In this document: piece by piece, positions 625 through 63,840 of the stretch
Layout: each line of letters starts with the position of its first letter
Position numbering within the stretch: position 1 is the stretch's first letter
From: Candidatus Omnitrophota bacterium
GTDB taxonomy: Bacteria; Omnitrophota; Gorgyraeia; Duberdicusellales; 4484-171
DNA: 64,000 bases
Reading direction: 5' to 3'
Assembly (NCBI GenBank): GCA_024231025.1
Contig: JAAEQW010000006.1
Span: forward strand, 236-64,235
Made by a program: the position numbers and the translations under genes
The notes under the pieces: generated by a model
What the model was told of the DNA's origin: nothing
The model's input: only the letters and a program-made list of their open reading frames with translations
Databases searched by the model: none

Positions 625-640
625 AGATCAAAACCTCCTT

Positions 641-7246: not shown

Positions 7247-8920
7247 TTGTCAATAAGTACTTTCCAACTAGATACCATTGACCCAACACCACCGTGGCCT
7301 TATAATGCCTTTAAAATGACTAGACCGAAATTCCCCCCATTAACCAGCCGCCTTTGCATATTGATAATAATTTTATTATCTGTATGCATATACATAAATA
7401 CCTTAAAGGGTGAATTCATATGGCACGATAAGTTCTTTATTGCAGAAAAAGGAGCAATCCTGCAATCATGGAAAAATTTACCAACGGTGTTTAGTTCGGG
7501 TTTCTGTAACTTTAAAAACACAGACATATCGCAAGGAATATATTACCGCCCTTTAGTTACTCTCTCCTATTCTCTTGACTATCTCTTATGGAAGCTACGC
7601 CCGGCTGGATATCACCTAACAAACATATTCTGGCACACCTTAAATGGGATAATGATTTTTATTATTTTGCTTCTACTTACCAAAAAACGTGCGCTCGCAC
7701 TTCTGGCTAGCATGCTATTTATATCTCACCCTATTCAAACCGCATGCGTCAGCTATATAACAAATCGCGTTGATATACTTTGTCTTTTTTTCATGCTGTT
7801 TTCTTGGTATGCGTTTATAAAGAGTAACGAGACTGATCGAAATATTTTTACTGCCCTCTCACTGTTCTCTTTTGTGGCTGCGCTTCTAGCAAAAGAGGCG
7901 GCAATTGTTTTACCGTTGCTCTTTCTGCTGCATATTGTGTGTTTTAAAAAAATAAAAAAGCAAAAAGTAATTTTTTACACAACTGCAATGATCTTTACAT
8001 CATGCGCCTATTTGCTTATCAGATACAACGCAACAAGAAGTTTAGGGGTACAATCACCTCTACACGAAAACAAGGTTGCTCTTGCCCTTACAATGCTCAA
8101 TGTCATTACAGACAACATCCGGCTTCTGCTTTGGCCAAGCAACCTTAGCACCAGCGATGCTTTTTTAATATCGCGTTCGATTATGGAAAATTACACGTTT
8201 GTATCTTTTATGATTATTTCTGCGTTGATTGCAATTGCAATATACTACCTGAAAAAAGATAAGTTAATTAGTTTCTGTTTATTTTGGTTTTTCATAACAC
8301 TATTGCCGGTGTTAAATATAATTCCGATCCTTTACCTTCGTGCAGATCACTTTCTATACATCCCATCACTTGGATTTTGCATCTTAACTGCGGCAATACT
8401 CCATAAAAATAGAGCTTTCCTAAGGCACTCTTTAATTATTATTTTAATTTTCTCTATTCTTACAATAAGCCGAAACAAAGATTGGCAAAATGAAATAAGT
8501 CTCTTTAGCAAAAGTATAAAATCACACCCACAAGCAAAAGAAGCACACGCTTGTCTGGGCTTTGCTTATCACCAAAAAGGCTTACACGAAAAAGCCTCAC
8601 ATCATTATAAAAAGGCCCTTATAAGTAACCCGAGTTACTACAGCTTTTCACGTCCTGGGCGTATTTTAGAGAATTTAGCAAACATTTATTACGCCGGTCA
8701 TCTTTATAAATGGGCAGAAAAATATTATCAAATGGCTTTAGAGTTTGAACCCGAAGATGGCAATATACACCTTGGGTTAGGTAATGTTTATTACGAGCAA
8801 AATCAATACCAAAAGGCAATAGACTCCTATCAAGCTTCCTTGAGATATTCGCCCAGCAACAGCAGCGCTCACCACAACTTATCTAAAGCATATGAAAAAC
8901 AGGTGGGTTTGAAAAAATGA
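7247..8920 (+). CDS. Polytopic membrane protein with C-terminal TPR repeats (PMT/ArnT-like glycosyltransferase architecture)
   Basis: About 11 hydrophobic segments are followed by TPR-like repeats (AHACLGFAYHQKG...). A likelier start is the internal Met at MTRPKF. Confidence 0.5.
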   Translation: MSISTFQLDTIDPTPPWPYNAFKMTRPKFPPLTSRLCILIIILLSVCIYINTLKGEFIWHDKFFIAEKGAILQSWKNLPTVFSSGFCNFKNTDISQGIYYRPLVTLSYSLDYLLWKLRPAGYHLTNIFWHTLNGIMIFIILLLLTKKRALALLASMLFISHPIQTACVSYITNRVDILCLFFMLFSWYAFIKSNETDRNIFTALSLFSFVAALLAKEAAIVLPLLFLLHIVCFKKIKKQKVIFYTTAMIFTSCAYLLIRYNATRSLGVQSPLHENKVALALTMLNVITDNIRLLLWPSNLSTSDAFLISRSIMENYTFVSFMIISALIAIAIYYLKKDKLISFCLFWFFITLLPVLNIIPILYLRADHFLYIPSLGFCILTAAILHKNRAFLRHSLIIILIFSILTISRNKDWQNEISLFSKSIKSHPQAKEAHACLGFAYHQKGLHEKASHHYKKALISNPSYYSFSRPGRILENLANIYYAGHLYKWAEKYYQMALEFEPEDGNIHLGLGNVYYEQNQYQKAIDSYQASLRYSPSNSSAHHNLSKAYEKQVGLKK

Positions 8921-33046: not shown

Positions 33047-33092
33047 AAATATTGCCTGAAAACTCTTATTTGATATAATTATGACTTGTTAC

Positions 33093-33176
33093 GCCGAAGT
33101 GGTGGAACTGGCAGACACGCAGCGTTCAGGGCGCTGTAAGTGCAAACTTGTGAGAGTTCGAATCTCTCCTTCGGCA
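33093..33176 (+). tRNA. tRNA-Leu(CAG), 84 nt, no encoded CCA
   Basis: The acceptor stem is GCCGAAG/CTTCGGC, the anticodon stem CAGCG/CGCTG with loop TTCAGGG, and the T-arm GAGAG-TTCGAAT-CTCTC. A long variable arm is present. Confidence 0.85.
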
Positions 33177-33273
33177 TGTTCTAATATTCCAGGAGTTTTT
33201 GAACATTGGAACATTGGAACATTAGACCGTCCCGACATAATGTCGGGACTCTGCGAAAGCTTTGCTTTCGCTC

Positions 33274-33368
33274 GGAGAGGTGCCTGAGCCCGGTTTAAAG
33301 GGTCCGATTCGAAATCGGATGTTCGCCCATAAAGCGAACCCAGGGTTCGAATCCCTGCTTCTCCGCCA
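33274..33368 (+). tRNA. tRNA-Ser(CGA), 95 nt with encoded CCA
   Basis: The acceptor stem is GGAGAGG/CTTCTCC, the anticodon stem TCCGA/TCGGA with loop TTCGAAA. A long variable arm GTTCGC...GCGAAC is present, and the T-arm is CAGGG-TTCGAAT-CCCTG. Confidence 0.85.
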
Positions 33369-33456
33369 TATTGGTATATTCCGGTCACATCCTTTACGCA
33401 ATATTCCGAGCACATAGTTTACACAATATGGCATATTAACTTTCCCAAAGGATTAA

Positions 33457-33684
33457 AACATATCAAATAACCAAATAGGTCAGAAAATTAAAGGGCTGCG
33501 CATTAAAGCAAAATTAACTCAAAAAGATTTTGCTTGTAAAGCCGATGTAAAATATACAGCCCTGACAAAAATCGAAAGCGGAATTATAAAAAGCCCTTTT
33601 GTGCAAGTAATAGTCAAGATTGCCAAAGCCTTGAATGCTTCTATAGAAAAATTTACTGTCTTCTTGAAACCGCTTACAAAATAG
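33457..33684 (+). CDS. Small XRE/Cro-type helix-turn-helix protein (~70 aa), open frame lacking a canonical start codon
   Basis: The in-frame translation IGQKIKGLRIKAKLTQKDFACKADVKYTALTKIESGIIKSPFVQVIVKIAKALNASIEKF matches the HTH_XRE pattern. No ATG, GTG or TTG precedes the domain, so it is either ATA/ATT-initiated or a pseudogene. It ends inside the palindrome upstream of P1. Confidence 0.4.
   Translation, partial: NISNNQIGQKIKGLRIKAKLTQKDFACKADVKYTALTKIESGIIKSPFVQVIVKIAKALNASIEKFTVFLKPLTK
33664..33681 (+). promoter_or_regulatory. Imperfect copy of the family palindrome (TTGaAA-ccgc-TTACAAAA) about 90 nt upstream of P1
   Basis: It differs by one base from the TTGTAA-N4-TTACAA sites upstream of P2 to P4, in the same gene-relative orientation. 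A separate TTGAAT-N18-TATATT promoter-like pair lies closer to the start. Confidence 0.45.
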
Positions 33685-33762
33685 TACGAATAATCCCCTG
33701 ATTTGCTTGAATTTTTACCTTCTGAAATGGTATATTTTAGTGAATAGGGTAGTGATTAATTT

Positions 33763-36700
33763 ATGAGTCAAAACCGAAATTTACTATTTAAAAAAGCTTC
33801 TATATCTTTCAGGGCAATCGGCACATTTGTTGCAATAGCCTTTGTTGGTAGTATCTTTCTATCTAATTTACCAAAACAACAAAGTATACCTGAAGCTTCT
33901 ACTGTTTATAATCTACCCTCGCCTACTGAAATATTACCTTTGTCAAAAGAGTATTCTTATCCATTACTGAAAGGGATCCGCTTTGATCCCAAAAACCCTT
34001 TAAATCTTGAATTTATTATCGATACCACCAATGAAAGTGATGTTGGCGAAGAAGAAGCTTCTCGTCTTGTAAAGTATTTTTTAGCTGGATTGACCCTTCC
34101 TGAAAAGGACTTGTGGGTTAATTTATCACCTTACGAGAAGACAAGAGTTGCTTCAGACAACTTGGCATTAACAGATTTAGGAAAAGATATGTTAAATCAG
34201 GATTATGTTCTAAAGCAACTTCTTTCTTCTCTCACTTATCCCGAAAGTAAAGTAGGCAGAGATTATTGGCAAAAAACTTACCAAGAAATAGCTAAAACTA
34301 TCGGTACAACCAATATCCCAATTAACACTTTCAATAAAGTCTGGATTGTGCCTAATAAATGTGTTCTTTATGAAAGCGGTAATGCAGCGTTTGTGAAAGA
34401 GGCAAGCATGAAGGCGTTGATAGAGCAAGATTACACTGCTTTGCAAGGTAACCAGCCATCAGGCAATAGACAACAGGTTGTAGACCAAAACAAAGTGGAA
34501 AAGATTATATCGCGGATAATGAAAGAGACAGTTTTGCCAAAAGTGCAAGACGATATTAATCATGGAGAGAATTTTGCAACTTTAAGACAAATATACCACT
34601 CTATGGTTTTGGCAATATGGTTTAAGCAGAAGTTTAAACAGTCGTTTTACAAGTATTACATTAATCAAGAGAAGGTTGGTGGAATCGATTTAGAAGATAA
34701 AGATGTTAAAGAAAAAATTTATAATCTTTATGTTGAAGCCTATAAAAAAGGCGTGTATGACTACATTAAAAAAGATTATGACGTCTCTGGAAGGAAATAT
34801 TTAAATCGAAGATATTATTCCGGCGGCATTAATGTGCCGACACAGGAAACGGTTGATGTGATAAGAATTGGTGAACTAGAAAAGAAGGTCTTAGAGCTCG
34901 AGCAACAAGGCGAGTATAAAAAGGTAAAGACTTTATGCGCGGTTTATAGTGAAACTCAACATCAAAAAGATGATACGTTAATAGATAAAGCCTATAAGGC
35001 TGGGAATTTCCGGAGAGTCGATGATGACGTAATTGATGAAGTAAGCGTATTATTTCGAGAATTAGGCGAAAATGGCGAACTTATAGCCCAGAAGCTAGAT
35101 GATCTTAGAAAGCAAGGGGGAATAAATCTTGTATTGGGTATTCCTCATTCCCATGCAGGCGGTAAAGGTATTCATATACAAGTTGGTGATTTACACAAAG
35201 TTAACAAAAATTACGTACGAGATAAGTTAATCCATGAAGCAATAGCCGGCACAATTTTTGGCCATTCAGGTAAAGTGCATAATTTGGCGATAGGTGTGGT
35301 AGAAGCACTAAATAGGGATACAGCAGAAGCAAGAAGGGTTTTAAATGAACTCGAAGGATTTTCTTTTGCTGAAGATGGTAAAGTCTTATGGGAAATGACG
35401 CAAGCCGAACGTGATGGGTTAGTTAGAGATTATGCAAACGCGGCACATAAATTAGAGAATCTAACTTTGTCTTTAGAAGAAGTAGAGAAAGTAGACGCTC
35501 TTTTTGATGAAAAAATCAAAAAGGGGCTGGAGAAGATATATTCAAACATCAAAAGAGGTGTGTCTTTTCGGCAAGTACTGGAACATTTCGCCTCCGAAGA
35601 TACTCCTATTGGAGAGGAAAGGCTAGTTCATAGCACAGATGAGATTGTTCTGGATATGTTGCGGGATGATTCATTGTATCCTGAAGGAATTGAAGTTCGG
35701 TTTTTACGGATACGTGAGACTAACGATTGGATATTAATAAAATGCAGAGAAACTGAACTATATCGACGTGGGATCTCTGATGTCCCGGGGTCGATGCAAC
35801 CTCTCTTTATGCCGTATAAGGAGAATCAAGCTGCAATGCATTATTACTTCGATATCGATATTCATAGCCATAACGACGACCAACCACTCCCAAATATCCG
35901 TGATCTTTGGGAGTGCTATTCGAGAAGTTCGGGGCAGCAATCACTGTTTTTGATCAAAGGAAGAAAGGGAGTAACCGCAATAAATTTAACCAAGGCGGTT
36001 GGCCGAGTAACTGACGATGATTTCAAAGTGATTTTATGTAATGTAGTGCGAGATTTACAAAACATGCTGACGAAGAGGGAAGATGAAACGATATCTCCTC
36101 ACGAAAAAACACCAAGAATTTTTATCGAAGCTGCGCTGGATCAGTTAGAAAAGCACGAGGACTTATTAACCCGAAAATTTATTCCATGGTCTGATTTTAC
36201 TTTAGATCATTTAAAAAGTCGGTCGTTTCAACTAAGTGATGTTTTGCAATCGCAGGATAGGGGGGAACAGAGACTGGCGGCAATTGCAGTTCTTCGGGTT
36301 TTATCAACGCAGGTTAATTATGATTTTAAAGTGGCGATGTTTCGAAAAATAATTGATGTTTCCGACTGGAAGTTTCAATTACAAATTCTCGACGTTCTTT
36401 ACCGTTACTTTGAACCCGGACAAGAAATGAACAATGCTTATGATTTATTTTTGCAGTTGCCATCGCCGATTGTCCAAGCTGTGGCCAGCTTGCAAGGTTC
36501 ATCAAATGCACTTTTTGATCGCCATGGAACAAGAAAGTCTCGAAAAGTTATTGATGACGAAGCAACCGTTATGGCTGATGAGTTTTTGACATATAAGATT
36601 AAAATCATGTTGTCGAATAGCCTAAGTAATAGCTTGACTATTGCGGCCAGTTTGGACGAAGAAGATCTGGCGCAAATCGACAGGGAGCTCTTGCTGCAGT

Positions 36701-37614
36701 ACCTTGATCGACTAACTAAAGCCGGAATAAGCCGAGAAGGAAAGCAAGATGTGTTGGTTCTTTGCGCAAGGCACCTTAGAGAAGAGTGGGGTTTAGGCGA
36801 TACAGAAGATAAGGAATTAAGTGACCCGAAAGTATCACAGCGAGAGAACCACGATAATAAACTTGAGCACATATATAAACAGAATCCCAATAATGTAACC
36901 GCGGTGCTTCCGTGGACTACAAAGGAAGTGGTTGAGCTATTTCGCAAAATAGATGATGACGGGCAGTGCCCGTTGGCGAGCAAGCTTGCTGATAAAATAG
37001 AGTTGTTACTGGGAAGTCGAGATCCATTGAGATCTCAAGGCAGGTATTTTAGTAGAGACGGAAAAAAGATCATTAGAAGCCGGATCAACATTGTCCGCGG
37101 CATTGACCGCTCTCATGCTGGGGGAATGGGGATAAATATTATGGCTCGAGAAATTAGGCCGATAGACGAGGATGAAAAATATATTAAGGGAACTATTATT
37201 CACGAAGCAGTCGCGGGTACAATTTTTGGCGATTCTGAAAAAGTGCATAATTTAGGACTGGAGTTAGAACGAGCATTAATTAATGGAAGATTTGGTATAG
37301 CAGCTGATTTATTAAATAGCCTCTCTGGTGTTGCCCCGCATCCATCTGGCCGTGCGCTTTGGGAAATGACTCAGGAACAAAGGAATGAATTGGGCAGAGA
37401 CTATGCAAGCCCAAATGATATCGATGATGCTGGATTTGGTGGGTTAGATTTGACTGCTGATTCTTTTGCTATACAAATCGAAGGCGAGAACGAAAATATT
37501 GAATCTGGTGAATCTTTTTACCAGGATTTTGATCGGCTCAGTTTAAAAGATGTATTTATTGAAGATATCTCTTCTTCTGAACTCGCCCAGAGCTTCTTCC
37601 CAAATAATAATTAA
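33763..37614 (+). CDS. P1: 1283-aa signal-anchored envelope protein with a family-specific N-domain and two internal ~110-aa repeats carrying SHAGG and HEAxAGTIFG motifs
   Basis: An N-terminal TM helix is followed by the conserved domain (YNLPSPTEILPLSKEYSYPLLKG...NRRYYSGG). Repeats lie at aa ~455-565 and ~1095-1215. The acidic C-terminus carries GGLDLTADSF. Confidence 0.7.
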   Translation: MSQNRNLLFKKASISFRAIGTFVAIAFVGSIFLSNLPKQQSIPEASTVYNLPSPTEILPLSKEYSYPLLKGIRFDPKNPLNLEFIIDTTNESDVGEEEASRLVKYFLAGLTLPEKDLWVNLSPYEKTRVASDNLALTDLGKDMLNQDYVLKQLLSSLTYPESKVGRDYWQKTYQEIAKTIGTTNIPINTFNKVWIVPNKCVLYESGNAAFVKEASMKALIEQDYTALQGNQPSGNRQQVVDQNKVEKIISRIMKETVLPKVQDDINHGENFATLRQIYHSMVLAIWFKQKFKQSFYKYYINQEKVGGIDLEDKDVKEKIYNLYVEAYKKGVYDYIKKDYDVSGRKYLNRRYYSGGINVPTQETVDVIRIGELEKKVLELEQQGEYKKVKTLCAVYSETQHQKDDTLIDKAYKAGNFRRVDDDVIDEVSVLFRELGENGELIAQKLDDLRKQGGINLVLGIPHSHAGGKGIHIQVGDLHKVNKNYVRDKLIHEAIAGTIFGHSGKVHNLAIGVVEALNRDTAEARRVLNELEGFSFAEDGKVLWEMTQAERDGLVRDYANAAHKLENLTLSLEEVEKVDALFDEKIKKGLEKIYSNIKRGVSFRQVLEHFASEDTPIGEERLVHSTDEIVLDMLRDDSLYPEGIEVRFLRIRETNDWILIKCRETELYRRGISDVPGSMQPLFMPYKENQAAMHYYFDIDIHSHNDDQPLPNIRDLWECYSRSSGQQSLFLIKGRKGVTAINLTKAVGRVTDDDFKVILCNVVRDLQNMLTKREDETISPHEKTPRIFIEAALDQLEKHEDLLTRKFIPWSDFTLDHLKSRSFQLSDVLQSQDRGEQRLAAIAVLRVLSTQVNYDFKVAMFRKIIDVSDWKFQLQILDVLYRYFEPGQEMNNAYDLFLQLPSPIVQAVASLQGSSNALFDRHGTRKSRKVIDDEATVMADEFLTYKIKIMLSNSLSNSLTIAASLDEEDLAQIDRELLLQYLDRLTKAGISREGKQDVLVLCARHLREEWGLGDTEDKELSDPKVSQRENHDNKLEHIYKQNPNNVTAVLPWTTKEVVELFRKIDDDGQCPLASKLADKIELLLGSRDPLRSQGRYFSRDGKKIIRSRINIVRGIDRSHAGGMGINIMAREIRPIDEDEKYIKGTIIHEAVAGTIFGDSEKVHNLGLELERALINGRFGIAADLLNSLSGVAPHPSGRALWEMTQEQRNELGRDYASPNDIDDAGFGGLDLTADSFAIQIEGENENIESGESFYQDFDRLSLKDVFIEDISSSELAQSFFPNNN

Positions 37615-51125: not shown

Positions 51126-53726
51126 TTAGAAAGATTCTGAATAGTGTTGGGGGATACTTTCAATCTCTTCTGTGTGGTGGACAGTAAAGTTAATGCCTTT
51201 TAATTCGCTGGGGGGGAATAAAAGAAGAGGCTGATTCGCATAAATATTATAATCAAAGCTGCCTTTACGCTTAATTTTGGTTTCCAAATCAATGCCGCCA
51301 TGAGAACCATCTTTTAGGGCCGAACCCATATCTTTGCCCTGAACATCTTCCGCTCTTTTTGCAGGATCGGTTATTCCTGCTGGAAGATTATCTAACTGTG
51401 TGGCATTAAATGAATGTGAGCTAGAAGCAAAATACATACTCTCCATCATGTATTTTAACCGAGTTGGACCAGTCGGATCAGGTAAAAAGGTACCTCTTTC
51501 TCGATCGTAATTTAAATATAAACATCCCCAGCTACCATCATTATTATCAATAGCAATCTGCAAAAAAGTATCATTATATCCTTTCGGAAAAGATGGCGTT
51601 GGTTCATTTTTATCTGAACCAATACCGAGTCCCCACATACGTCCGAAATGCGTCGGAGATAAATTAGCGACTTCACCTTCTAAAAATAATGTGTGTGTTT
51701 TTTGTTGACCAGTTGCAGGGTCAACTGTATCATACATAACCTTAGTATACTTTTTACCGTCATACTCATAACCATAAGCAGCAAAATAACGCAAGGCAAT
51801 CGCCTCTAACGTCTTGTCACCCATCGAATAATCTATTTCGGCCTCAAACTCCAAATCAAGTCCATAAACAGTTTCGGTTGGACTTATCTTTTCTGCTCTG
51901 TGTTGCAGATACTGCTCATATGCACGAACTGTGCCCTCAGGAATTCTCTGCGCTTTGGCCTGAGTTTCAGTAATCAGACCCTCTTTTAACGATTCGTCTA
52001 CAGCCATGTTGTGAGAAAACATCCAATTATACCCTCGCTTTCGCCAATGCAATTCTACGGTATCGTGGAAAATTTCTTTATATAAATCATCTTCACTCAA
52101 TTCTTCCAAGTCAACCTCAAAGCAAATAATTATTACTCGTCCATCGTCGGTGATAATATTAATTGTCTGCAACCCATCTTCACGGATTACTGTTTCTTTT
52201 AATCTTTGAATTAACGGACTATTTCCAACTAGTGATAATGGGATCACCTCAACATCTGCTGAATCCAAAACCTTAACTTTTTGCCATTTGCCATCAGCCG
52301 TTTCCATAAAGACTTCGTTCTTATGCCCCCATGCATTATCCACTGATGCAAAGGCTCCCTTTAAAGCATTGATCCGGTTAAGGTTTCTTCTTATTCCTAA
52401 ATTGGGGTCGTGGGTATCGCTATTTTCATCAGTTGCTGCAAGCAATTTTAATATTAAATCGCGCTCATCTTGTTCATCGGAATCCGGAATTAATTCGCGT
52501 ACCGCATTCACAAAACCATGCCTTACAGATATGTCTCCTCTGATGTTTCCTCCTACATCCGGCGTACCATCTCCGGTAATTTTTAATGGGTCACCCTTAA
52601 CATTTTCCCCTATCGCTTTTGCCGCTCCTTGGGAACGTGTGCTCTTTTTTTCGATTCTTTCACTGCATGCAAGAGTAGCTCCGCCAGAATAATACTTTCT
52701 GCGAATAGGCTTATGAGATCCGACGTTTCTTTCTCGTTTGATAAAATTATAAACCCCCTTCTCATAGGCGAGATTATACTGTTCGTACACCTTTTCTTTA
52801 ATCTGAGAATCAGAACACTCTACGCCAGCAATCTTTTTCTGATCGGTATAAATTTGATTTAAAAGTGCGGTCTTTAAATGATTCTTATACCATAAAGCTA
52901 AAATAACCGAGTTTACTGCCTGCCTTATCGGAGTAAAAGATCGATTACGATTAACTTCTTGTTCTACTTCAGGTAAAATAATTTCTTTGGTTATTTGTGC
53001 AGAAATGCTCTGAGCATCTTCACTTTTTTTATCGACCCCTTTTCTAAGATAATCTTTGCTTCTCCTCATCGCCAAATAATCTGCCTCTAATAATACTTTC
53101 AACTTCGGTTTAGTAAGAAATGCTTTATTTCCATCTTCGTATACCACGATTTCCTCAGGCTTAATCCACACTTTGTTAAAAGTACTAATTGGAATGTTTG
53201 TAGTACCAAATTTTTTATAAACTTCTTGGTGTACGTTTTGCCAAAAAGTTTTACCCGGCTCTTCCTCTGGATAAGTTAAGGATGCCATTAGTTGTTTTAA
53301 AAGATAATCTTGAGTTAATAATTCTTTACCCAGGGTAGTTTTACCTAGTTCATCCGGAATAATCCGGTTACTCTCGTAAGGTGATAAGTTTACCCAAAGA
53401 TCCTCCTCAGGAATAGTTAAAGCAGCAAAAAAATACTCAATAAGCTCATCGGCTTTCTGTTTGACTTGATCCTTAGTTAGATCTCGATTATCACCGGTAT
53501 CAAGTATAAAACTAAACCGCCAAGGATTATTTTTGTCAATTTCAATGCCTACTAATATTGGCGGATTGCAAAGGCTAGTGGTTCTAACCATTCCCTCTGG
53601 TAGTGGCAGACTTTTTGAGGAATCACTAGAAGACACAGGGCTACTACACCCCAACAAAATCACCAAAAAACCACCGATCAAGGATTTAAAACAATTGCCT
53701 GAAAACACATTCTCTGTCATATACAA
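51126..53726 (-). CDS. P2: 866-aa predicted lipoprotein carrying the family N-domain and a unique C-terminal region
   Basis: It has the lipobox LVILLGC. The N-domain (LCNPPILVGIEIDKNNPWRFSFILDTG...RRKYYSGG) is about 45% identical to P1, P3 and P4 by eye. The C-terminus carries GGIDLETK. Confidence 0.7.
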   Translation of the reverse strand: MYMTENVFSGNCFKSLIGGFLVILLGCSSPVSSSDSSKSLPLPEGMVRTTSLCNPPILVGIEIDKNNPWRFSFILDTGDNRDLTKDQVKQKADELIEYFFAALTIPEEDLWVNLSPYESNRIIPDELGKTTLGKELLTQDYLLKQLMASLTYPEEEPGKTFWQNVHQEVYKKFGTTNIPISTFNKVWIKPEEIVVYEDGNKAFLTKPKLKVLLEADYLAMRRSKDYLRKGVDKKSEDAQSISAQITKEIILPEVEQEVNRNRSFTPIRQAVNSVILALWYKNHLKTALLNQIYTDQKKIAGVECSDSQIKEKVYEQYNLAYEKGVYNFIKRERNVGSHKPIRRKYYSGGATLACSERIEKKSTRSQGAAKAIGENVKGDPLKITGDGTPDVGGNIRGDISVRHGFVNAVRELIPDSDEQDERDLILKLLAATDENSDTHDPNLGIRRNLNRINALKGAFASVDNAWGHKNEVFMETADGKWQKVKVLDSADVEVIPLSLVGNSPLIQRLKETVIREDGLQTINIITDDGRVIIICFEVDLEELSEDDLYKEIFHDTVELHWRKRGYNWMFSHNMAVDESLKEGLITETQAKAQRIPEGTVRAYEQYLQHRAEKISPTETVYGLDLEFEAEIDYSMGDKTLEAIALRYFAAYGYEYDGKKYTKVMYDTVDPATGQQKTHTLFLEGEVANLSPTHFGRMWGLGIGSDKNEPTPSFPKGYNDTFLQIAIDNNDGSWGCLYLNYDRERGTFLPDPTGPTRLKYMMESMYFASSSHSFNATQLDNLPAGITDPAKRAEDVQGKDMGSALKDGSHGGIDLETKIKRKGSFDYNIYANQPLLLFPPSELKGINFTVHHTEEIESIPQHYSESF

Positions 53727-53778: not shown

Positions 53779-53802
53779 TTTTTTGTAAGCGGTTACAAAA
53801 AA
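53779..53802. promoter_or_regulatory. Palindrome TTTTTTGTAA-gcgg-TTACAAAAAA, 64 nt upstream of P2
   Basis: It has perfect 10-bp arms. In gene orientation TTGTAA-N17-TAAAAA resembles a -35/-10 pair. It sits within a ~75-nt block conserved with the P4 leader. Confidence 0.55.
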
Positions 53803-53874: not shown

Positions 53875-56800
53875 TTACTTCCAGGAATTTACGGCAAGGT
53901 CATCGATAAATTCATAAGGGGATATATCACCCATGAAGGTAATTTCAAAAGTAAGCGTATCAAAATCCCCATCAATTATACGTAGGGGCGGGCCTTGTGT
54001 CCGCCCGTAATCTTCATCAAGACCTTCACCAACGGTTTCTAAATTAAAAGAATCTTGGGTTACATCAATACCGCCAACGCTATTAGCAGAAGGAGTATCC
54101 ACCTCTTTAACCTTATCGCCCTTATCTTGAAAATCAACAATCATATCTGCTGTAACTACATATAAGGCTTTAACTAGCTCTTGTAATGGCAGAGGACCAT
54201 TTACCGGACCTAAATCAGGATTAACATCATCAAAGTAATATCCTCTTTTTCCGTCTTTTTCCATAGTCTTAAAGCCTCTTGATCCTTCGTAACTTTCAGA
54301 ATAATCTGGGTTAACTTCATATAGTTCACTACGAATAGAATTCTTTATTAAATCATCTGCATATTCATCACCCTCTGCCATAAAATAAGCCATCTGTTTA
54401 GCTAGACGCTCCCAATTGATTAAATCAATTGTTCTGCCTGAAGCTTGCCTGCCACTAAAGCTAGTGTAGGCTTGCTCAAACATCTCTTTCATTATGCTTT
54501 GTAACTGATTGATACTTTCTATACTATCTATATCAAGCTGGTTGGTCTCTCTAAGATAACTACCAATCATAAGAGTTGAGGCAAAAAGATAATCTCCCAG
54601 ATAGCTTGCAAGGTAAAAGTTAGAAGCACTAGGACCAAATCTTTGTAGCGAATGTAGAATATCAGGTACATCTTTATTGCTAGGATTGGCTATATCCTCA
54701 AGATTAAAAACATTTGCAAAATCAGCTACTCCAGAAATTCTAGAATTAGGGTACTTAACTGAACTAGGCCAAGCATGAAGTCTTCCTGTGCCAGAACGAC
54801 TCATTACTTGTTGAATAATTGCAATCATCCATTGAAATCTTCTATTTTGGCCAAGGTTATGGAAGAGTTCAATTAAATCAGTATGGAGCAATCCGTGTCT
54901 ACCTAAGACAAAGAGATCATGGATTGAAGTCAAAAGAGCACCCTTGAACTGCTCAATATCTAATTCGCTATCGTTAAGATAAGTTAAGTAATCTTCATTA
55001 TCCAGTTCATAGGCCATAAGGGTGTAATGCTTATACCTATGGTCTGGGGTTAGAGCTTCTCCTTCCTTGCTGGCTTGACCATTAAGCGCCGCTAAGGCAC
55101 CCTCCGACAAAGAAGCAACTCTGTTTACTCTTTGACCATTTACTAATAAAGCTTTTGGGTATTGGCCTTTAAGCCCTAAATTGCCTTTATGCTGATAGAT
55201 ATATTCGATAAGCTGATGTTCATAAAACAAATCGTTAGGGTTTTCTTTATCCTTAAGGACTTTGACGCATAAAATCTTACCTTCCCTAGTTTTGTAAACC
55301 AAAGTTCTACCTTGAGCACGTAACAAAACAGCACCTTCTAGAAAACCGTCAAGACTATCTAATTTAGAAAACTCTTTTAACTGCCTAGCTTGTTTTTGAG
55401 GCAATTCAGAAGGTAAAACCTCTAGTTTAGGCGGCTGATTATCGCTTAATGCTGCTTCGCTATAAGTATTGTAGTTAGCCGGAGAATCTCCACCATCGCT
55501 AAAATCAATTGCATACAATCTAAAGGCCTGACGCATTAATTCAATGCTAATATCTCTCTCCTTTTTTCGCAAGTATTGAGCAAATTTAAAGAAATAACGG
55601 CTATCGTTCATAGCGCTATCAGCATCAGACATCCTTACACGCGATAACAAAACTAACTGCATCTCATCTTCCAAGGCTTCTAAAGCTTGATCAGGTGACA
55701 CACCATCTGTTATCATTTTGGCTAACTGAGAGTAAAATCTATCCTGATCTCCAGCTTCTCGAGCAAATCGATATATCCACTCAAATTCAGGAGTAAAGTA
55801 TTCGCTAGCTCTTTTTAAGGCTTGCGGGTCATCCTTTAATTCCTTTAAGAGCCTTATAAACGAATTAACAAAAATATTATCTAACTTTTTGCCACATATA
55901 GCTAAATAAGCATCTTTTAATTCCTTATAGCTAAATCCTTTTATATCTTCTTCACTAATTAAACCTGATTCTTTTAACGCATTTACTGCACGAGCAGCTG
56001 AATTTTGCTTTTGCCGATTTGAATTAGCTAAATCACCTATAAAAGTATTTATTGGGAGTCTACTCCTCACCTCATCCCTACTAATCAAACCAGTTTCGAT
56101 CAATGCCTTCATTAACCCGGCAGACATCTCTGGAACATGTTGATCTAGGCTAGTTAGATTAGTAATCAAATTACTTAATAACGGTTCATTCTTTATATCA
56201 TCCTCAGCAATCAATCCTGCTTCTGCCAATGTTTTTATTTTTGCAATGGCCGCATCTCTAACTTGCCAGCTTGAATCGATTATGTCACTAACCAAAGTAT
56301 CCATTGGAAACCTACTCTTTACTTCATTACTTTTAATAGATCCGATCTCTGCAACTGTTTCAGTAATTACTTGTTGCTCGTACCAATACGAATCAGTTAC
56401 CTTGCTAGCCAAAAGATCTATTGGAAGATCTGCTGGAAGTTCATCTTTCACTTCATCTCTACTAATCGAACCAGCCCTAATTAACGCTTCTATTACCCGA
56501 ACAGCTGCATCTTCAACGTCCGTGTATTGACTTTTTGAGGCAATGATTAGCTTGCTCAACAATGAATTATTTTTCATATCATCCTCGGTGATTAATCCAG
56601 CTTCTATCAAGGCTTCTAATGCCAAAAGGACTTGTTTTTTTGTTGATGGTATTAATCCATTAAGCTTATTTATTAAGATATCCAGCATTGGTATATCCTC
56701 AATATCATCTTTGCTAATAAGACCTGCACGTGCTAGCGCACTTATTGTCGAAACCCCACCAATTATCTCTAGCTGATTAAAACTACTCAAACGAATCACT

Positions 56801-58194
56801 AAATTATCTAAGGTCTCTAACCAAGCTACGGACCTTTCAATCTTAACCGCTTCTTCTTCAGACAAAGACTCACTACCCACAACACCATAATCAGTAATTT
56901 TACGACCTGATACCTGCTCTATGTGCTGAGTTGTTTGTTCTTTTTTGCGAGATTTTTCTCCGGGTAGATTCTTAGCACCTTTATGAATATCAGAACCTAG
57001 CCCCACCAAATCACCTATATCTCTAGCAATAGAAACTCCTTTGGGCAATTCAGTAACTACTTGCTGAAAATCTTCAACTTTCTTGTCAAAAAGAACACCA
57101 CCAGAATAATACCTTCTATTTAGTTTTTTATTAGTTGCAGGATCGTAATCTCTTCTTACGTAGTTATAAACACCCTTCTTATAGGCTTCGACATAGAGAT
57201 TGTAGATTTTCTCCTTTGCGCCCTTGTCCTCTAAGCCAATGCCCGAAATTTTGCCTTGGTCAATGTAATCTTTGTAAAAACTATCCTTAAATTTCTTTCT
57301 AAACCAGACTGCCAATACAAGTGCGTGGTATATTTGACGCAAAGTAGCAAAGTTTTCGCCATGGTTTACTTCCTGATTTATTTTAGGAAGAATTGTTTCA
57401 TTGAATATTTGGGATGTTATTTGGTCTATTTGATCTGGGGACTGTCCCATTTTTTTCGCAGAAAAAATAGGGACTGTCCCCTCTCTTAGGGAATTTTGCT
57501 GCACTGCAACATAGTCACGCTGATGCATAACCTTTAGGCTCGCTTCCAAAATAAATGCCGTGTTTGCCTTTTCATAGACAACACTTTTCTCCGGCATAAT
57601 CCAAACCTTATTATAAGTATTGATTGGCATATCCGATGTGCCAAATTGATCAGCTAATTGTTGATAAACCTGTTGCCAATATTCTTTGCCAGTTTCACTT
57701 TCGGGATAGGTTAAAGAAGAGACGAGTTGCTTCAAACAATAATCTTGCCCTAACATGTCTTTACCAAGATCAGTCAAAGCAAGATTGCCTGAAGCAACTC
57801 GGTCTTCTTCGTGTGGAGATAAGTTAACCCATAACTCCCCTTGCGGGAGGGTTAATCCAGCTAAAAAATATCTAATAAGCCGCGAGGCTTCTTCGCGGCT
57901 TACATTGTCCTTACTAGAGGTATCAACAATAAATTCGATATTTAAAGGATTCTTGGGACTAAATCGTAGCCCCTTAAGCAATGGATATGAGTAATCTTTC
58001 GATAATGGAAGCAACTTAGTCGGCAGCGGTAAACCATAAACCGCAGCTTGCGCAGTCCTGAGCTTGCCGAAGGAGAGTTGGCGATTACGCAATATTGTAG
58101 GCAGTATAATACCTACAAAAATAGCTATAGCTAAAAATATAGCAATAAATTTAAACGGAATTGTACCTTTTCGTAATATCTTTACATGAGCCAT
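53875..58194 (-). CDS. P3: 1439-aa signal-anchored protein with the family N-domain, about six ~35-aa helical (HEAT/ARM-like) repeats and the shared C-terminal tail
   Basis: An N-terminal TM helix is followed by the N-domain (...KKLNRRYYSGG). Repeats of the form GLI(S/T)xDD/EV(K/R)...L occur at aa ~480-760. The C-terminus carries VGGIDVTQDSFNLETVGEG. Confidence 0.7.
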   Translation of the reverse strand: MAHVKILRKGTIPFKFIAIFLAIAIFVGIILPTILRNRQLSFGKLRTAQAAVYGLPLPTKLLPLSKDYSYPLLKGLRFSPKNPLNIEFIVDTSSKDNVSREEASRLIRYFLAGLTLPQGELWVNLSPHEEDRVASGNLALTDLGKDMLGQDYCLKQLVSSLTYPESETGKEYWQQVYQQLADQFGTSDMPINTYNKVWIMPEKSVVYEKANTAFILEASLKVMHQRDYVAVQQNSLREGTVPIFSAKKMGQSPDQIDQITSQIFNETILPKINQEVNHGENFATLRQIYHALVLAVWFRKKFKDSFYKDYIDQGKISGIGLEDKGAKEKIYNLYVEAYKKGVYNYVRRDYDPATNKKLNRRYYSGGVLFDKKVEDFQQVVTELPKGVSIARDIGDLVGLGSDIHKGAKNLPGEKSRKKEQTTQHIEQVSGRKITDYGVVGSESLSEEEAVKIERSVAWLETLDNLVIRLSSFNQLEIIGGVSTISALARAGLISKDDIEDIPMLDILINKLNGLIPSTKKQVLLALEALIEAGLITEDDMKNNSLLSKLIIASKSQYTDVEDAAVRVIEALIRAGSISRDEVKDELPADLPIDLLASKVTDSYWYEQQVITETVAEIGSIKSNEVKSRFPMDTLVSDIIDSSWQVRDAAIAKIKTLAEAGLIAEDDIKNEPLLSNLITNLTSLDQHVPEMSAGLMKALIETGLISRDEVRSRLPINTFIGDLANSNRQKQNSAARAVNALKESGLISEEDIKGFSYKELKDAYLAICGKKLDNIFVNSFIRLLKELKDDPQALKRASEYFTPEFEWIYRFAREAGDQDRFYSQLAKMITDGVSPDQALEALEDEMQLVLLSRVRMSDADSAMNDSRYFFKFAQYLRKKERDISIELMRQAFRLYAIDFSDGGDSPANYNTYSEAALSDNQPPKLEVLPSELPQKQARQLKEFSKLDSLDGFLEGAVLLRAQGRTLVYKTREGKILCVKVLKDKENPNDLFYEHQLIEYIYQHKGNLGLKGQYPKALLVNGQRVNRVASLSEGALAALNGQASKEGEALTPDHRYKHYTLMAYELDNEDYLTYLNDSELDIEQFKGALLTSIHDLFVLGRHGLLHTDLIELFHNLGQNRRFQWMIAIIQQVMSRSGTGRLHAWPSSVKYPNSRISGVADFANVFNLEDIANPSNKDVPDILHSLQRFGPSASNFYLASYLGDYLFASTLMIGSYLRETNQLDIDSIESINQLQSIMKEMFEQAYTSFSGRQASGRTIDLINWERLAKQMAYFMAEGDEYADDLIKNSIRSELYEVNPDYSESYEGSRGFKTMEKDGKRGYYFDDVNPDLGPVNGPLPLQELVKALYVVTADMIVDFQDKGDKVKEVDTPSANSVGGIDVTQDSFNLETVGEGLDEDYGRTQGPPLRIIDGDFDTLTFEITFMGDISPYEFIDDLAVNSWK

Positions 58195-58280: not shown

Positions 58281-58302
58281 TTTTTTGTAAGCGGTTACAA
58301 AA
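58281..58302. promoter_or_regulatory. Palindrome TTTTTTGTAA-gcgg-TTACAAAAG, 98 nt upstream of P3
   Basis: It has the same core and the same orientation relative to the gene as the P2 and P4 sites. Confidence 0.55.
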
Positions 58303-58345
58303 GATGGTTTTCTAATCGGGGGACAGCTACCCTATTTAAACGAGA

Positions 58346-58403
58346 GTTACTCATCGCCTCCCCTGCCGCAGACATAAAAAATCCGCCCTAAAAAAGGACG
58401 GAT
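58346..58403 (-). terminator. Family repeat block containing a rho-independent terminator (ATCCGCCC-taaaaaa-GGACGGAT plus T-run on the minus strand)
   Basis: It is one of three near-identical copies of GTTACTCATC(A/G)CCTCCCCT(A/G)CCGCAGACATAAAAAATCCG(T/C)CCTAAAAAAGGACGGAT. It lies downstream of the 131-aa gene and upstream of P3. Confidence 0.6.
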
Positions 58404-59882: not shown

Positions 59883-62800
59883 TTAATTCCGTGTTTTTTC
59901 CTTTTCTAACAAAGCTTTCACGCCTTTTCCGTCTCTGATTGTCGACACCCTGATCCCTTTTAAATTTTTAAATCGATTAATTAATTTTGGTGACCAGTTA
60001 TATTTAATGGTTCCATCGGCTTTAACTAAATCATCTAACACAATGCCACCTAACCCATTATTGGGCTGTTTTTTTTCCTCCGTTCCTGCTGAAAGAAGGC
60101 TTTTCCAATCACGTTGTGGTAAATACTCCTCACTTTCAGCGAAATATTTTTCTCCTTTATTTGTATGTTCTCCCCCGGGATTATGCGATTTGAATGGTGT
60201 TTTATCACGGCCCCAACTATTCAATAGGACTACACCCATCGGAGAAAGTCCAGATATATGAGATTTTCTCCCTCTAGCTTGAGACAAATGAACCACAAAA
60301 TCAAAATCACCGAGAAAAGTTACCCCTTGTTTATGATCTTCTCGCAAATCAATCATAAATGTATTTGTTTCTATTCCGGCTCTCCTAGCAGAATCAACCA
60401 ATGCAAAAGGTACACTAGCATCACCCCCTGCAAAATCAACAGTCGCAATGCTATAACCCACCTCTTCAATTCTTGCTCTAACAGATGGTACTTTTTCGAT
60501 CGTATTTATTTCAGAATTAACATGGAATGCTCCGATTAATACTACTACTCGGAAATCTTTATTTTCTTCTAGCACTTCTTCAAGCTCCTGGCACAGGTAC
60601 TCTTCTCTTTCTCCTTCAGTAGGATTATGTTTTTGCTGGTCTATATCTATCTGAACTATTTTAATTCCAACAGCGACAAAAGCTCTAACTAGCTCCTCTT
60701 CTCTCACATTAGGACCCACTTCAGCATGCGTTAAAGTTACTGCTTGCCCCTCATTTAAGTCATCAATATTTTTAGTTTTATGAGTTTCAACTGCTAAATG
60801 AGTAATTCCCATTTCTTTAAATTCTTTAGCATGCCTAGCTAGATGTTCACTTATATCCCCATTGTCGTGCATATCACCCATAAATAAAATCTGACGATTA
60901 CCCAATATTTTTCTATAGTTAACTGGTTCTTGGTTTCTGATCAATCTGGCAGCTGCATCATCATAATTATTCCATAAATCATCCACATCTCTGCGCTCAG
61001 CAACCTTTGTTGGCATATCTGGTGGGTCTATTACTTTTTCAATATTTCTATCTAGCATAGACTTGCCATTGCTCGAAGTATTGCTTACAGACTGTTCTTG
61101 CTGTTGACCCGATATCTTTTTTAAACTACTCCACCAACTTATCCTAAGTGCCCCTTCTTTATTCGTTATTTCGCCTTCAATATGGTAATCATCAATACGT
61201 CTTATTGTTATAGTTAAGGCATCGCCAGCATCTGCTTTTCGTAAGGTATGCTCGTTTACTTTTCTATATTTTTCTTCGTACCCTTCTTCTCGCAATGAAT
61301 TAAGAACTTGTTCATATAAAGCATCTGGTATAAGTTCATAATCACCACCTTTTGAAATCCTATCGGACTCAATAGTATATGTAAAACTTGTAAAAGGGGC
61401 TTCTTTGCGCCATCGTTTTAATTCTTCATTATATCTTTCGACTGCCTTAGAGAGATTAATTGGAATAGCTCTATTATCATTAGCATTCTTTTTTAGCATC
61501 CCTGTCGGACTCAAGACAAAAAGCATTGAATCACCTTGCTGAGAATAACCTGGAAAAATACTTACAATATCTCCTGTTTCGATATCAAAATCCAGTTGTA
61601 TTACCCCTCTATTGGTTATAGCACTGCCTCCATCTCCTATAATCGTAAAATTATCTGCCTCTATGCTTTCTCGTAGTAACGCTAAATTCTTTTTTATAAC
61701 TGAATTGCCTTCTTCCATTCCTGGTAATCTTTGTTGGGGGAAAGAGGGCATCTCTTCTGAAGCATTTATTTTGGGATCAGCATATTCCAATGTAGCTAAA
61801 ACATATTGTGCCCATGCTGCCCGCCAGTCAGAATAATAATTTTCTACTATTTCGGTATGCATATCCCAGTCCACATATAAAGTATTATTTTCAACGTCTA
61901 TAAAAGCCATTAAATCTTCTATTGCGCCTACCCTACTAACTGTAGCGAGTGCCTGTGTATTATTAATAAAATCTCGGAGTAGATATATCTTAATGCCCTT
62001 TTTCATCAGAATACCTTGCGGATCATGAATACCATAGGCTCCGCCGCCATCTGGATATAATTCTGATATAGATAAAGCCCTTTCAAGCAGTTCTTTATCT
62101 AGCTCTTCTCTGTAGGCGGCAGCTATTTTTTTAACAACTTCGTTTTGTTCTGGGGTTAATGTTCTACCATCTCGACAAATAGCCATATAGCCTTGACCTG
62201 ATTCAGTAAAGTTATCTATATTAGCAATTTCAACAAGTTTTGTTGGCATACCGGCTGCGGCTTTAATTTCACCAGCATCCGGTCTGGTTTCCGTTACATC
62301 TTTTAGGACATGACCTCCGGAATAATATCGACGATTTACTTTTTTACGACTAGCTTGATCATAGTCTTTTTTGATGTAATCATATACACCTTTTTTGTAG
62401 GCGTCCACGTAAAGATTGAAGATTTTCTCCTTGGCGTCTTTATCTGCAATATCAATACCTTCGATTTTACCCTGGTCAATGTAATATTGAAAAACAGAGT
62501 CTTTGAGCTTTTTCTTAAACCAGCAAGCTAAAACAAAAGAATCATACATCTGCCGTAAAGTAGCAAAGTTTTCACCCTCGTTCACATCTCGTTCGATTTC
62601 CGGTAAAATTATTTCCTTTAAAACTTGAGAGGAGATCTTATTAATTTCTTCTTGGTTTCCATCAACAATAGATTGTTTGTGGTTTAGTGGTTTTGATAAA
62701 GCTAGATAGTCTTCTTCAGACATTGCTTTTAATTTAGTTTCATCGATGAGTACAATGTTTCCTTTTTCTACGAGTTCGGCGGTTTCAGGGACAATCCAAA

Positions 62801-63398
62801 CTTTATTGAATGTATCTATGGGAATATTTGTTGTGCCAATGGCTTTATGTATCTTCTTATATATTTTATTCCAATACCTCTTGCCTAACTCATTTTCAGG
62901 GTAGGTCAAAGTAGATACCAGTTGCTTTAAAATGTAATCTTCTTTTAATAAGTCTTTGCCTAAATCAGTTATTGCCAGGTTATCGGAGGTTACCCTGTCT
63001 TGTTCGTGGGGCGATAAGTTTACCCATAAATCTTCTTCGGGTATCGTAAGCGCAGCTAAAAAATAATTAACCAGTCTGATCATCTCTTTGTCGCTTATAT
63101 CCTCTTGGTCAGCTGGATCAATTATAAACTCAAACTTGAAAGGATCATTTGGATCGATCTTTAATCCTTTTAGTGATGGTTGCGAATGCACTTTAGAAAG
63201 AGGCACTAATGTTGTAGGTGCAGGTAAATTATATACCGATTCTTTAGCTGTTTGGATAGACTTTAACCGCAACAGATTAGGCCTACTAGCAGTCATAAAA
63301 ACCAAGCTAATCATTATGCAAGCTGCCACTCCTAAACATGCAAATTCAAATAATGTAGTGCCTTTTTTCATAATATTTACCCTAGAGTATCGTATCAT
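59883..63398 (-). CDS. P4: 1171-aa signal-anchored protein with the family N-domain and a C-terminal region carrying GxxH...GAxH motifs (tentatively TIKI/ChaN-like)
   Basis: An N-terminal TM helix is followed by the N-domain (...KKVNRRYYSGG). The C-terminal region has ILFMGDMHDNGD...LIGAFHV. An alternative start lies at 63371 (MKKGTT). Confidence 0.65.
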   Translation of the reverse strand: MIRYSRVNIMKKGTTLFEFACLGVAACIMISLVFMTASRPNLLRLKSIQTAKESVYNLPAPTTLVPLSKVHSQPSLKGLKIDPNDPFKFEFIIDPADQEDISDKEMIRLVNYFLAALTIPEEDLWVNLSPHEQDRVTSDNLAITDLGKDLLKEDYILKQLVSTLTYPENELGKRYWNKIYKKIHKAIGTTNIPIDTFNKVWIVPETAELVEKGNIVLIDETKLKAMSEEDYLALSKPLNHKQSIVDGNQEEINKISSQVLKEIILPEIERDVNEGENFATLRQMYDSFVLACWFKKKLKDSVFQYYIDQGKIEGIDIADKDAKEKIFNLYVDAYKKGVYDYIKKDYDQASRKKVNRRYYSGGHVLKDVTETRPDAGEIKAAAGMPTKLVEIANIDNFTESGQGYMAICRDGRTLTPEQNEVVKKIAAAYREELDKELLERALSISELYPDGGGAYGIHDPQGILMKKGIKIYLLRDFINNTQALATVSRVGAIEDLMAFIDVENNTLYVDWDMHTEIVENYYSDWRAAWAQYVLATLEYADPKINASEEMPSFPQQRLPGMEEGNSVIKKNLALLRESIEADNFTIIGDGGSAITNRGVIQLDFDIETGDIVSIFPGYSQQGDSMLFVLSPTGMLKKNANDNRAIPINLSKAVERYNEELKRWRKEAPFTSFTYTIESDRISKGGDYELIPDALYEQVLNSLREEGYEEKYRKVNEHTLRKADAGDALTITIRRIDDYHIEGEITNKEGALRISWWSSLKKISGQQQEQSVSNTSSNGKSMLDRNIEKVIDPPDMPTKVAERRDVDDLWNNYDDAAARLIRNQEPVNYRKILGNRQILFMGDMHDNGDISEHLARHAKEFKEMGITHLAVETHKTKNIDDLNEGQAVTLTHAEVGPNVREEELVRAFVAVGIKIVQIDIDQQKHNPTEGEREEYLCQELEEVLEENKDFRVVVLIGAFHVNSEINTIEKVPSVRARIEEVGYSIATVDFAGGDASVPFALVDSARRAGIETNTFMIDLREDHKQGVTFLGDFDFVVHLSQARGRKSHISGLSPMGVVLLNSWGRDKTPFKSHNPGGEHTNKGEKYFAESEEYLPQRDWKSLLSAGTEEKKQPNNGLGGIVLDDLVKADGTIKYNWSPKLINRFKNLKGIRVSTIRDGKGVKALLEKEKTRN

Positions 63399-63453: not shown

Positions 63454-63477
63454 TTTTTTGTAAGCGGTTACAAAAAA
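63454..63477. promoter_or_regulatory. Palindrome TTTTTTGTAA-gcgg-TTACAAAAAA, 67 nt upstream of P4
   Basis: It is identical to the P2 site. The surrounding ~75 nt (63406-63479) are near-identical to 53731-53804. Confidence 0.55.
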
Positions 63478-63495
63478 TAGCTTTTTTAATCGGGG

Positions 63496-63583
63496 GTTAC
63501 TCATCACCTCCCCTACCGCAGACATAAAAAATCCGTCCTAAAAAAGGACGGATGTTTTTTATATGGCGGAGAGGGAGGGAATC
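63496..63583 (-). repeat. Family repeat block copy 2: terminator hairpin plus a ~20-nt duplicate of the tRNA-Ser(UGA) 3' end
   Basis: Positions 63496-63583 match 63681-63768 almost base for base, including TGGCGGAGAGGGAGGGA (the tRNA 3' end) at 63564-63580. The terminator stem is at 63531-63553 and is followed by a T-run. Confidence 0.65.
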
Positions 63584-63680
63584 CGTTCCCGAACTTTGTT
63601 CGGGATCCGGGAACCATAAAATGTAATAGCCTATATAACTGGGGTTACAAACCCCTTTTTCGCTTTGCTCAAAAACGGGG

Positions 63681-63768
63681 GTTACTCATCACCTCCCCTA
63701 CCGCAGACATAAAAAATCCGTCCTAAAAAAGGACGGATTTTTTTTATATGGCGGAGAGGGAGGGATTC
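63681..63768 (-). terminator. Family repeat block copy 3 with rho-independent terminator immediately 3' of tRNA-Ser(UGA)
   Basis: The perfect hairpin ATCCGTCC-taaaaaa-GGACGGAT at 63716-63738 is followed by T7-8. It abuts the tRNA 3' end at 63749. Confidence 0.65.
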
Positions 63769-63840
63769 GAACCCCCGGTGAGTTTAACCCCACAACGGTT
63801 TTCAAGACCGCCGCGTTCAACCAGGCTCTGCCACCTCTCC
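63749..63840 (-). tRNA. tRNA-Ser(UGA), 92 nt with encoded CCA
   Basis: The minus-strand acceptor stem is GGAGAGG/CCTCTCC. The anticodon arm is GCGGT-CTTGAAA-ACCGT. A long variable arm is present, and the T-loop is TTCGAAT. Confidence 0.85.

Follow-up and report, generated by a model that had tools for sequence, protein, structure and literature searches.

An ATA at the start position of a Cro/C1-type regulator gene between a tRNA-Ser and a giant-protein gene of Candidatus Omnitrophota

Can an open frame that encodes a complete helix-turn-helix (HTH) domain, with no canonical start codon ahead of it, be a working gene, and does its product act on the neighbouring gene whose upstream DNA its last codons overlap? 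The question is raised by a locus of Candidatus Omnitrophota bacterium (contig JAAEQW010000006.1), where such a frame lies downstream of a tRNA-Ser and upstream of P1, one of four paralogous genes in the 64,000-nucleotide stretch that we analysed as a whole, hereafter the window. The earlier note on this DNA had left the choice between a non-canonically initiated regulator of the P1 paralog family and a decaying pseudogene.

The HTH frame and its start codon

The HTH frame is located on the plus strand at 33457-33684. It is open from 33457, directly after a TAA at 33454-33456, it is closed by the TAG at 33682-33684, and its translation reads NISNNQIGQKIKGLRIKAKLTQKDF...IAKALNASIEKFTVFLKPLTK up to the stop. 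The gene has the following parts:

33448..33452, + strand: Shine-Dalgarno-like AAGGA, 7 nt ahead of ATA 33460
33460..33684, + strand: HTH coding sequence, 74-aa XRE/Cro-C1-type protein, stop codon counted in
33460..33462, + strand: ATA, putative start codon, opposite the closest homolog's ATG in the alignment and first codon of GenBank protein MCP4651811.1
33487..33654, + strand: HTH_3 domain, Pfam model positions 1-55 of 55
33652..33681, + strand: C-terminal tail FTVFLKPLTK, predicted to be disordered, encoded across the P1 upstream element and not common to the family

The presence of a complete Cro/C1-type domain, as claimed in the earlier note, was borne out by Pfam, in which HTH_3 (PF01381) was covered from position 1 to 55 of 55 with 40.3 bits against a cut-off of 23; its E-value of 3.2e-10 over the full model places the match far beyond chance. 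NCBIfam gave generic XRE-type partial matches, every one under its cut-off, and PADLOC returned generic HTH matches only, with 'Control_protein' at E 1.3e-5. The AlphaFold model, based on 37 family sequences, had a pLDDT of 83.6 and contained the canonical helices (residues 5-16, 21-28, 32-40 and 48-58) with the helix 2 - turn - helix 3 fold, and the tail was modelled with low confidence from about residue 65. The top Foldseek matches in the PDB were the SinR DNA-binding domain, C.BclI, P22 c2 and 434 Cro (TM 0.7-0.8), and by sequence the best PDB match was 434 Cro (E 2.4e-5). The protein belongs to the HTH_3 family both by its domain and by its predicted fold. Judged from its sequence, the gene is a real but ordinary 74-codon gene for a stand-alone Cro/C1-type DNA-binding regulator, whose product would presumably act as a repressor.

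We also confirmed that no in-frame ATG, GTG or TTG occurs between the stop at 33454 and the domain; the first such codon is a GTG at about 33601, past the recognition helix. The in-frame near-cognate codons ahead of helix 1 are ATA 33460, ATA 33475, ATT 33487, CTG 33496 and ATT 33502. The closest homolog, P0002 (66 aa, 72% identical, found on the JGI contigs L001-L003), starts at exactly the codon that is ATA 33460 in the window, as seen in the codon alignment of ATA TCA AAT AAC CAA ATA GGT in the window with ATG TCA AGC AAT CAG ATT GGC in L001; the two start codons are separated by a single G-to-A difference in the third position. Four distinct relatives for which both an intact gene and its DNA were available (L001, L004, L007/L008 and L009) all had an ATG start, 2-5 codons ahead of the IG motif. 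Motifs comparable to AAGGA were found for about 40% of the long ORFs of the window, at spacings of 4-14 nt, and none was correctly spaced at any of the other in-frame near-cognate codons (33475, 33487, 33496, 33502). RNA folding of the initiation region gave no significant structure (z 0.49). Three of the five features looked for in a near-cognate start were found (position, ribosome-binding site and absence of alternatives). The GenBank entry MCP4651811.1, 'helix-turn-helix transcriptional regulator [Candidatus Omnitrophota bacterium]', has 74 aa and begins with MSNNQIGQ, which means that GenBank already annotates the gene from ATA 33460. Taken from the alignment, the ribosome-binding site and this annotation, the start of the gene is almost certainly ATA 33460.

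Three other accounts of the missing start codon were rejected. An N-terminal extension or a hidden frameshift conflicts with the in-frame TAA two codons ahead of the ATA, and the nearby ATG 33428 opens a frame of only three codons (ATG GCA TAT TAA). An alternative code with ATA as Met does not hold either, since ATA codons inside the gene stand opposite Ile codons in the homolog (e.g. I6 and the Ile of SIE), so there is no recoding.

The earlier note had proposed that ATG-started intact genes at orthologous loci would indicate a recent loss of the start codon. The ATG was indeed found at the exact position of the ATA, but in homologs that occupy other contexts and not at orthologous loci, so that they do not date the ATG-to-ATA change. 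Scans of genome and metagenome contigs returned only relatives at most 59% identical and in other contexts, and no orthologous loci; these scans require exact 8-residue words and are insensitive, and this absence is therefore weak evidence.

In E. coli, initiation at AUA reaches about 1-2% (0.02-3%) of the level at AUG (bioRxiv 10.1101/063800). ATG-to-ATA changes in the Listeria regulator gene rsbW reduce translation and do not abolish it, and such start codons are used by less than 0.3% of Listeria core genes (PMC13068326).

Low-level gene or early decay

The two alternatives of the earlier note proved to be the right ones to weigh. The reading to which we tentatively give preference is that of a genuine HTH gene, started at ATA 33460, expressed at a low level, under relaxed constraint and orphaned by a mobile element. 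The other reading, which we hold to be a serious possibility and only slightly less probable, is an early pseudogene, namely a relic of a degraded integrative element that has lost its start and its native 3′ end, is not meaningfully translated and has simply had no time to gain a stop or a frameshift. A start codon that is not canonical, where four distinct relatives use ATG, is what such a relic would show; AUA is, however, a weak but working initiator in the bacteria tested, and here the frame, all helices and the Shine-Dalgarno motif are intact.

In comparison with P0002, the window gene had a pN of 0.16 and a saturated pS of 0.75, which points to purifying selection through most of the divergence. 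With a leave-one-out family HMM, the window protein scored 99.2 bits (rank 23 of 37); this lies within the 81.6-122.6 bits of the intact members and speaks against decay. Its mean identity to the 35 outgroup members was, however, 50%, compared to 60% for the sister P0002, and 32 of these 35 members were nearer to the sister and none to the window protein. Of the 17 differences between window protein and sister, 11 were derived in the window and 2 in P0002 (binomial p 0.022), an imbalance that favours the pseudogene. The residues G12, S45, F47, F65 and T66 were found in none of the 35 other members; the unique changes at conserved positions, counted on the same side, are K12G, L65F and S47F, the last of which puts a Phe in place of the conserved Ser/Thr that follows the Pro at the helix-4 cap. 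The lineage of the window gene thus appears to evolve faster, under relaxed constraint, yet its HMM score has stayed within the range of the members.

No frameshift, internal stop or truncated domain was found in the 74-codon frame. Only 4.5% of the single-base changes possible in the gene create a stop, hence about 58% of copies would be stop-free after 12 random substitutions, and the open frame is weak evidence of function; such a frame is what a young pseudogene would be expected to keep about as often. On the other hand, about nine excess replacements, if all were neutral, would predict one or two indels at an assumed indel rate.

The C-terminus has to be considered together with the DNA that follows the gene:

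33664..33679, + strand: P-family upstream element TTGAAACCGCTTACAA (core GWAASCGYTTWCA), about 72 nt ahead of P1's predicted transcription start
33707..33736, + strand: P1 promoter-like site TTGAAT-18-TATATT with an upstream TG, its extended -10 kept in four of four paralogs
33763..37614, + strand: P1, 1283 aa, member of a very large Omnitrophota protein family and downstream neighbour of the HTH gene

Most relatives end with ...EDLI(K) and the stop, and a few carry unrelated longer tails. In the window, the family's usual stop is lost and the frame runs 8-9 codons (TVFLKPLTK) past it. Nucleotide similarity to the closest homolog was limited to 33452-33647, in essence the coding sequence as far as ...IEKF, and homology among the paralog upstream regions starts at about 33655. 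Only a few bases thus separate the native end of the HTH gene from the left border of the P1 upstream cassette, so that the frame continues across the element until it meets a stop, and the overlap of its last codons (TTG AAA CCG CTT ACA AAA TAG) with the 16-nt element, noted earlier, is real. This reading through of the C-terminus into neighbouring regulatory DNA counts in favour of the pseudogene. The excess of replacements and the lost family stop position would, taken together, fit decay as well as weak function.

The origin of the gene was approached through its upstream neighbours:

33052-33079, + strand: promoter-like site of the tRNA-Leu, TTGCCT-16-TATAAT with an upstream TG (promoter scan)
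33093..33176, + strand: tRNA-Leu(cag) (ARAGORN; Rfam tRNA 48.6 bits)
33274..33368, + strand: tRNA-Ser(cga) (ARAGORN; Rfam 51.4 bits), ending 91 nt ahead of the HTH start
33376..33425, + strand: two tandem 25-nt repeats, ATATTCCGGTCACATCCTTTACGCA / ATATTCCGAGCACATAGTTTACACA, 80% identical, unique in the window and located in the tRNA-HTH spacer
33425..33437, + strand: perfect 13-nt palindrome AATATGGCATATT, overlapping the extended -10-like TGgCATATT (33429-33437)

In L001, the HTH homolog is divergent from a 502-aa large serine recombinase with Resolvase, Recombinase and Zn_ribbon_recom domains, and the 3′ end of the recombinase gene (48-1556, minus strand) overlaps a tRNA-Ser(gct), an arrangement as in an integrated element. 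Since the closest homolog stands beside a serine integrase at a tRNA-Ser and the window gene follows directly after a tRNA-Ser, the latter may have been orphaned by a mobile element that had integrated at tRNA-Ser. Family members 50-60% identical were also found on four IMG/VR viral contigs, and in L004 a 56%-identical relative lies directly ahead of a methylase and a DpnII-like endonuclease gene. In the window, we found no integrase homolog and no second copy of the tRNA-Ser(cga) 3′ end that could serve as att, nor any composition break around this tRNA; among defence-system genes PADLOC gave generic HTH matches only and nothing for P1. Of a complete integrative element, with its integrase and att flanks, the locus thus shows only the adjacency to a tRNA and the context of the closest homolog, and the absence of the partner integrase from the window is a further point for the pseudogene.

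The ORF of the L001 recombinase is missing from the stored gene calls of the JGI contig, and the 475-nt spacer between recombinase and HTH gene contains a 10-bp inverted repeat GTGATAGTAT...ATACTATCAC. The small genes beside the HTH homologs of L007 and L009 look, by eye, like glyoxalase-family candidates. In the window, the region between tRNA-Leu and tRNA-Ser contains three overlapping copies of an 8-nt unit GGAACATT (33198-33226), followed by a perfect 10-bp hairpin GTCCCGACAT/ATGTCGGGAC (33229-33249). A 96-nt direct repeat (97% identical) was noticed at 63488-63583 and 63673-63768; it covers the 3′ end of the minus-strand tRNA-Ser(tga) (63749-63840) and about 76 nt downstream, including a terminator hairpin, and the second copy is located directly upstream of the element of the paralog 59883..63398. 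The repeat has the appearance of an att-like scar or of a tRNA that was partly duplicated. P-family genes of the window repeatedly adjoin tRNA-Ser 3′ ends, and P1 follows a tRNA-Ser too.

The idea that the gene in reality starts with ATG, and that the ATA reflects an error of assembly or consensus or a minor variant in the population, is improbable. The sequence does come from a metagenome-assembled genome (MAG), and one G-to-A difference separates it from a normal gene, but the excess replacements and the new tail are independent of this base. Single-base consensus errors are, moreover, rare in short-read assemblies.

According to the tentatively preferred reading of a genuine gene, the ATG of the family would have turned into ATA by the third-position change, with the Shine-Dalgarno motif and the unstructured initiation region kept. 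The protein would still be made, at a few percent of the ATG level or less, and such a low level could suffice for a small dimeric repressor. The gene would be an orphan regulator, most likely derived from a mobile element integrated at tRNA-Ser and now under relaxed constraint, and its original 3′ end would have been replaced, leaving the frame to continue into the P1 upstream element until a stop was reached.

The upstream element of the P family

The earlier note had also suggested that the HTH protein regulates the paralog family through the palindrome upstream of P1, and that a decayed regulator would leave P1 unrepressed. The element has the form TTGAAACCGCTTACAA at P1 and TTGTAACCGCTTACAA at the three minus-strand paralogs, where copies with one mismatch were located at 53783-53798, 58285-58300 and 63458-63473. 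A search of the window with the element gave 7 matches, compared to 1.15 expected. The core GWAASCGYTTWCA occurred only at the four paralog sites, compared to 0.04 expected; as the degenerate core pattern was derived after these sites had been seen, this statistic is partly circular, and the position and orientation of the sites are still consistent. The four upstream regions align over a T-run, the element and a conserved extended -10 (aaaTGGTAT), the spacing of which hardly varies; according to this alignment, the element is centred about 72 nt ahead of the inferred start of transcription. Its middle part, CCGC, lacks symmetry and always points the same way as the gene. The position of the element resembles that of a class I activator site. 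The 'imperfect' left arm GAAA at P1 was considered as a sign of a decayed copy and rejected, GAAA being the common form in other Omnitrophota genomes.

In other Omnitrophota assemblies, the core was present in L014 (2923-2935), L019 (815-827) and L020/L021 (282-294), once per locus, on the coding strand and 37-78 nt ahead of a P-family start, and it was found at no other place in the 21 loci compared. No HTH gene lies beside the element in L014, L019 or L020/L021, nor at three of the four copies in the window, and at the P-family loci L015/L016 and L017/L018 neither the motif nor an adjoining HTH gene was found. A tblastn search of the whole window revealed no second HTH copy or remnant; the absence of an equivalent gene at P2 to P4, as stated earlier, thus stands. 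Conversely, the loci of the HTH homologs (L001, L004, L007 and L009) contained no match to the P-family element, and their upstream regions had no motif in common.

These observations bear on the possibility that the HTH protein regulates P1-P4 in trans by binding TTGTAA-N4-TTACAA upstream of each paralog, the ATA start keeping its level low. The gene is indeed located immediately upstream of P1, with its stop just past the element, and the element is a near-palindrome of 16-20 bp, a size bound by XRE dimers, whose distance to the conserved extended -10 is the same for each of the four copies. However, at three of these copies an HTH neighbour is missing and no second HTH gene exists in the window, the core precedes P-family genes in other assemblies without an adjoining HTH gene, and the HTH homologs occur in unrelated contexts with no such motif upstream. 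In addition, the same MAG contains at least 13 further P-family members, the asymmetric centre with its constant gene orientation is at odds with this reading, and a site about 72 nt upstream of the transcription start is not a typical repressor position. Adjacency is the sole support for the regulatory link, and we therefore consider it very unlikely; the same adjacency is all that stands behind the claim of an unrepressed P1. As the element and the regulator do not occur together across loci and genomes, a dedicated role of the HTH gene in regulating the neighbouring giant-protein genes is improbable. Least probable of all is that the HTH protein acts as a low-abundance master regulator, binding GWAASCGYTTWCA about 72 nt ahead of the promoters of P-family genes, at least 16 of which are present in the MAG; if true, this would provide a handle on the control of the giant P-protein family.

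In L004, a 10-mer TTGTAAGCGG at 7874-7883 corresponds to one half of the P-family element, read in reverse complement, and precedes the 56%-identical HTH homolog by 127 nt. We rejected it as a shared operator, because it is compatible with chance: 0.58 matches were expected at one mismatch, and the observed match is exact.

The upstream region of the HTH gene itself (33376-33437) is as good a candidate for the DNA target of the protein as the P-family element. The tandem 25-nt repeats could be a promoter or operator region, and the palindrome AATATGGCATATT is a candidate for the gene's own promoter and operator, not significant alone, as by our own estimate about 0.4 such palindromes are expected by chance per 100 AT-rich bases. 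The terminator scan showed no plus-strand terminator between tRNA-Ser(cga) and the HTH gene. In the tRNA-HTH and HTH-P1 spacers, Rfam showed tRNAs only, and RNA folding gave z-scores of 0.49 and 0.15.

P1 had no Pfam or PADLOC matches. Its family comprises more than 3500 homologs that have only about the N-terminal quarter in common, and the further members in the same MAG carry GY858 locus tags. In homologs from other Omnitrophota, the C-terminal parts are variable and contain the Pfam domains TIM, PGK, enolase, phosphoglucomutase and PEP-utilising enzymes (glycolytic and other), as well as kinases, methyltransferases and HEAT repeats. Within P1, one segment is duplicated (35230-35314 / 37198-37282). 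We also considered that the HTH could be a detached N-terminal domain of P1, of the HTH-TM-ectodomain type, and rejected this, as the 78-nt spacer between them shows homology to the non-coding DNA that lies ahead of the other paralogs; P1 bore no similarity to a 552-aa protein whose HTH is 56% identical, which likewise argues against a detached domain.

For the minus-strand paralogs 51126..53726 and 59883..63398, the called starts (53726 and 63398) are located only 4-7 nt past the extended -10 TGGTAT; either their mRNAs are leaderless or the starts were mis-called. P1 and the paralog 53875..58194 have short out-of-frame ORFs at the position aligned with those called starts. The upstream regions of 53875..58194 and 59883..63398 contain a further conserved block of about 60 nt (58340-58402 and 63495-63560, minus strand), formed by a terminator hairpin and then TTTTTTATGTCTGCGGyAGGGGAGGyGATGAGTAAC.

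Relation to known systems

In size (about 65-75 aa) and helical fold, the HTH protein resembles 434 Cro, the N-terminal domain of SinR and P22 c2, with the DNA-binding domain of SinR as the best structural match (TM 0.79/0.93, rmsd 0.6 Å). The identity to these proteins is only 22-37%, however, and their operators, partner genes and phage context have no counterpart in the window; the recognition helix reads YTALTKIE in the HTH protein and QQSIQLIE in 434 Cro, hence the operator is not transferable. The controller (C) proteins of restriction-modification systems, C.BclI, C.AhdI and C.Esp1396I, share the same fold and size, but the window gene is not adjoined by restriction-modification genes, its downstream neighbour being P1, and no C-box was recognised.

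Near-cognate start codons are likewise known from infC (AUU), pcnB (AUU) and the ATG-to-ATA changes in Listeria rsbW; in the window, the ATA stands at the homologous start and the Shine-Dalgarno motif is intact. The unusual start codon of infC is conserved and serves the autoregulation of IF3, whereas nothing ties the HTH gene to the control by an initiation factor. Regulators of the Cro/CI type encoded by tRNA-integrated elements offer another parallel, given the 91 nt between the HTH gene and the preceding tRNA-Ser and the divergent serine recombinase of its closest homolog. They differ in that no integrase, att repeat or other element genes adjoin the HTH gene in the window, and the tRNA isoacceptor is cga at the window gene and gct at the closest homolog.

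The HTH gene is missed by gene callers that accept only ATG, GTG and TTG, and the NCBI pipeline already calls it from the ATA. Near-cognate starts are a known and rare phenomenon, to which this gene would add a further natural case of an ATG-to-ATA change at the start of a regulator, or else a case of early gene decay, and beyond annotation it matters little. The more useful by-product is a negative one, namely that the P-family element should not be attributed to the HTH protein; the cognate factor of this element, if there is any, would have to be sought elsewhere.
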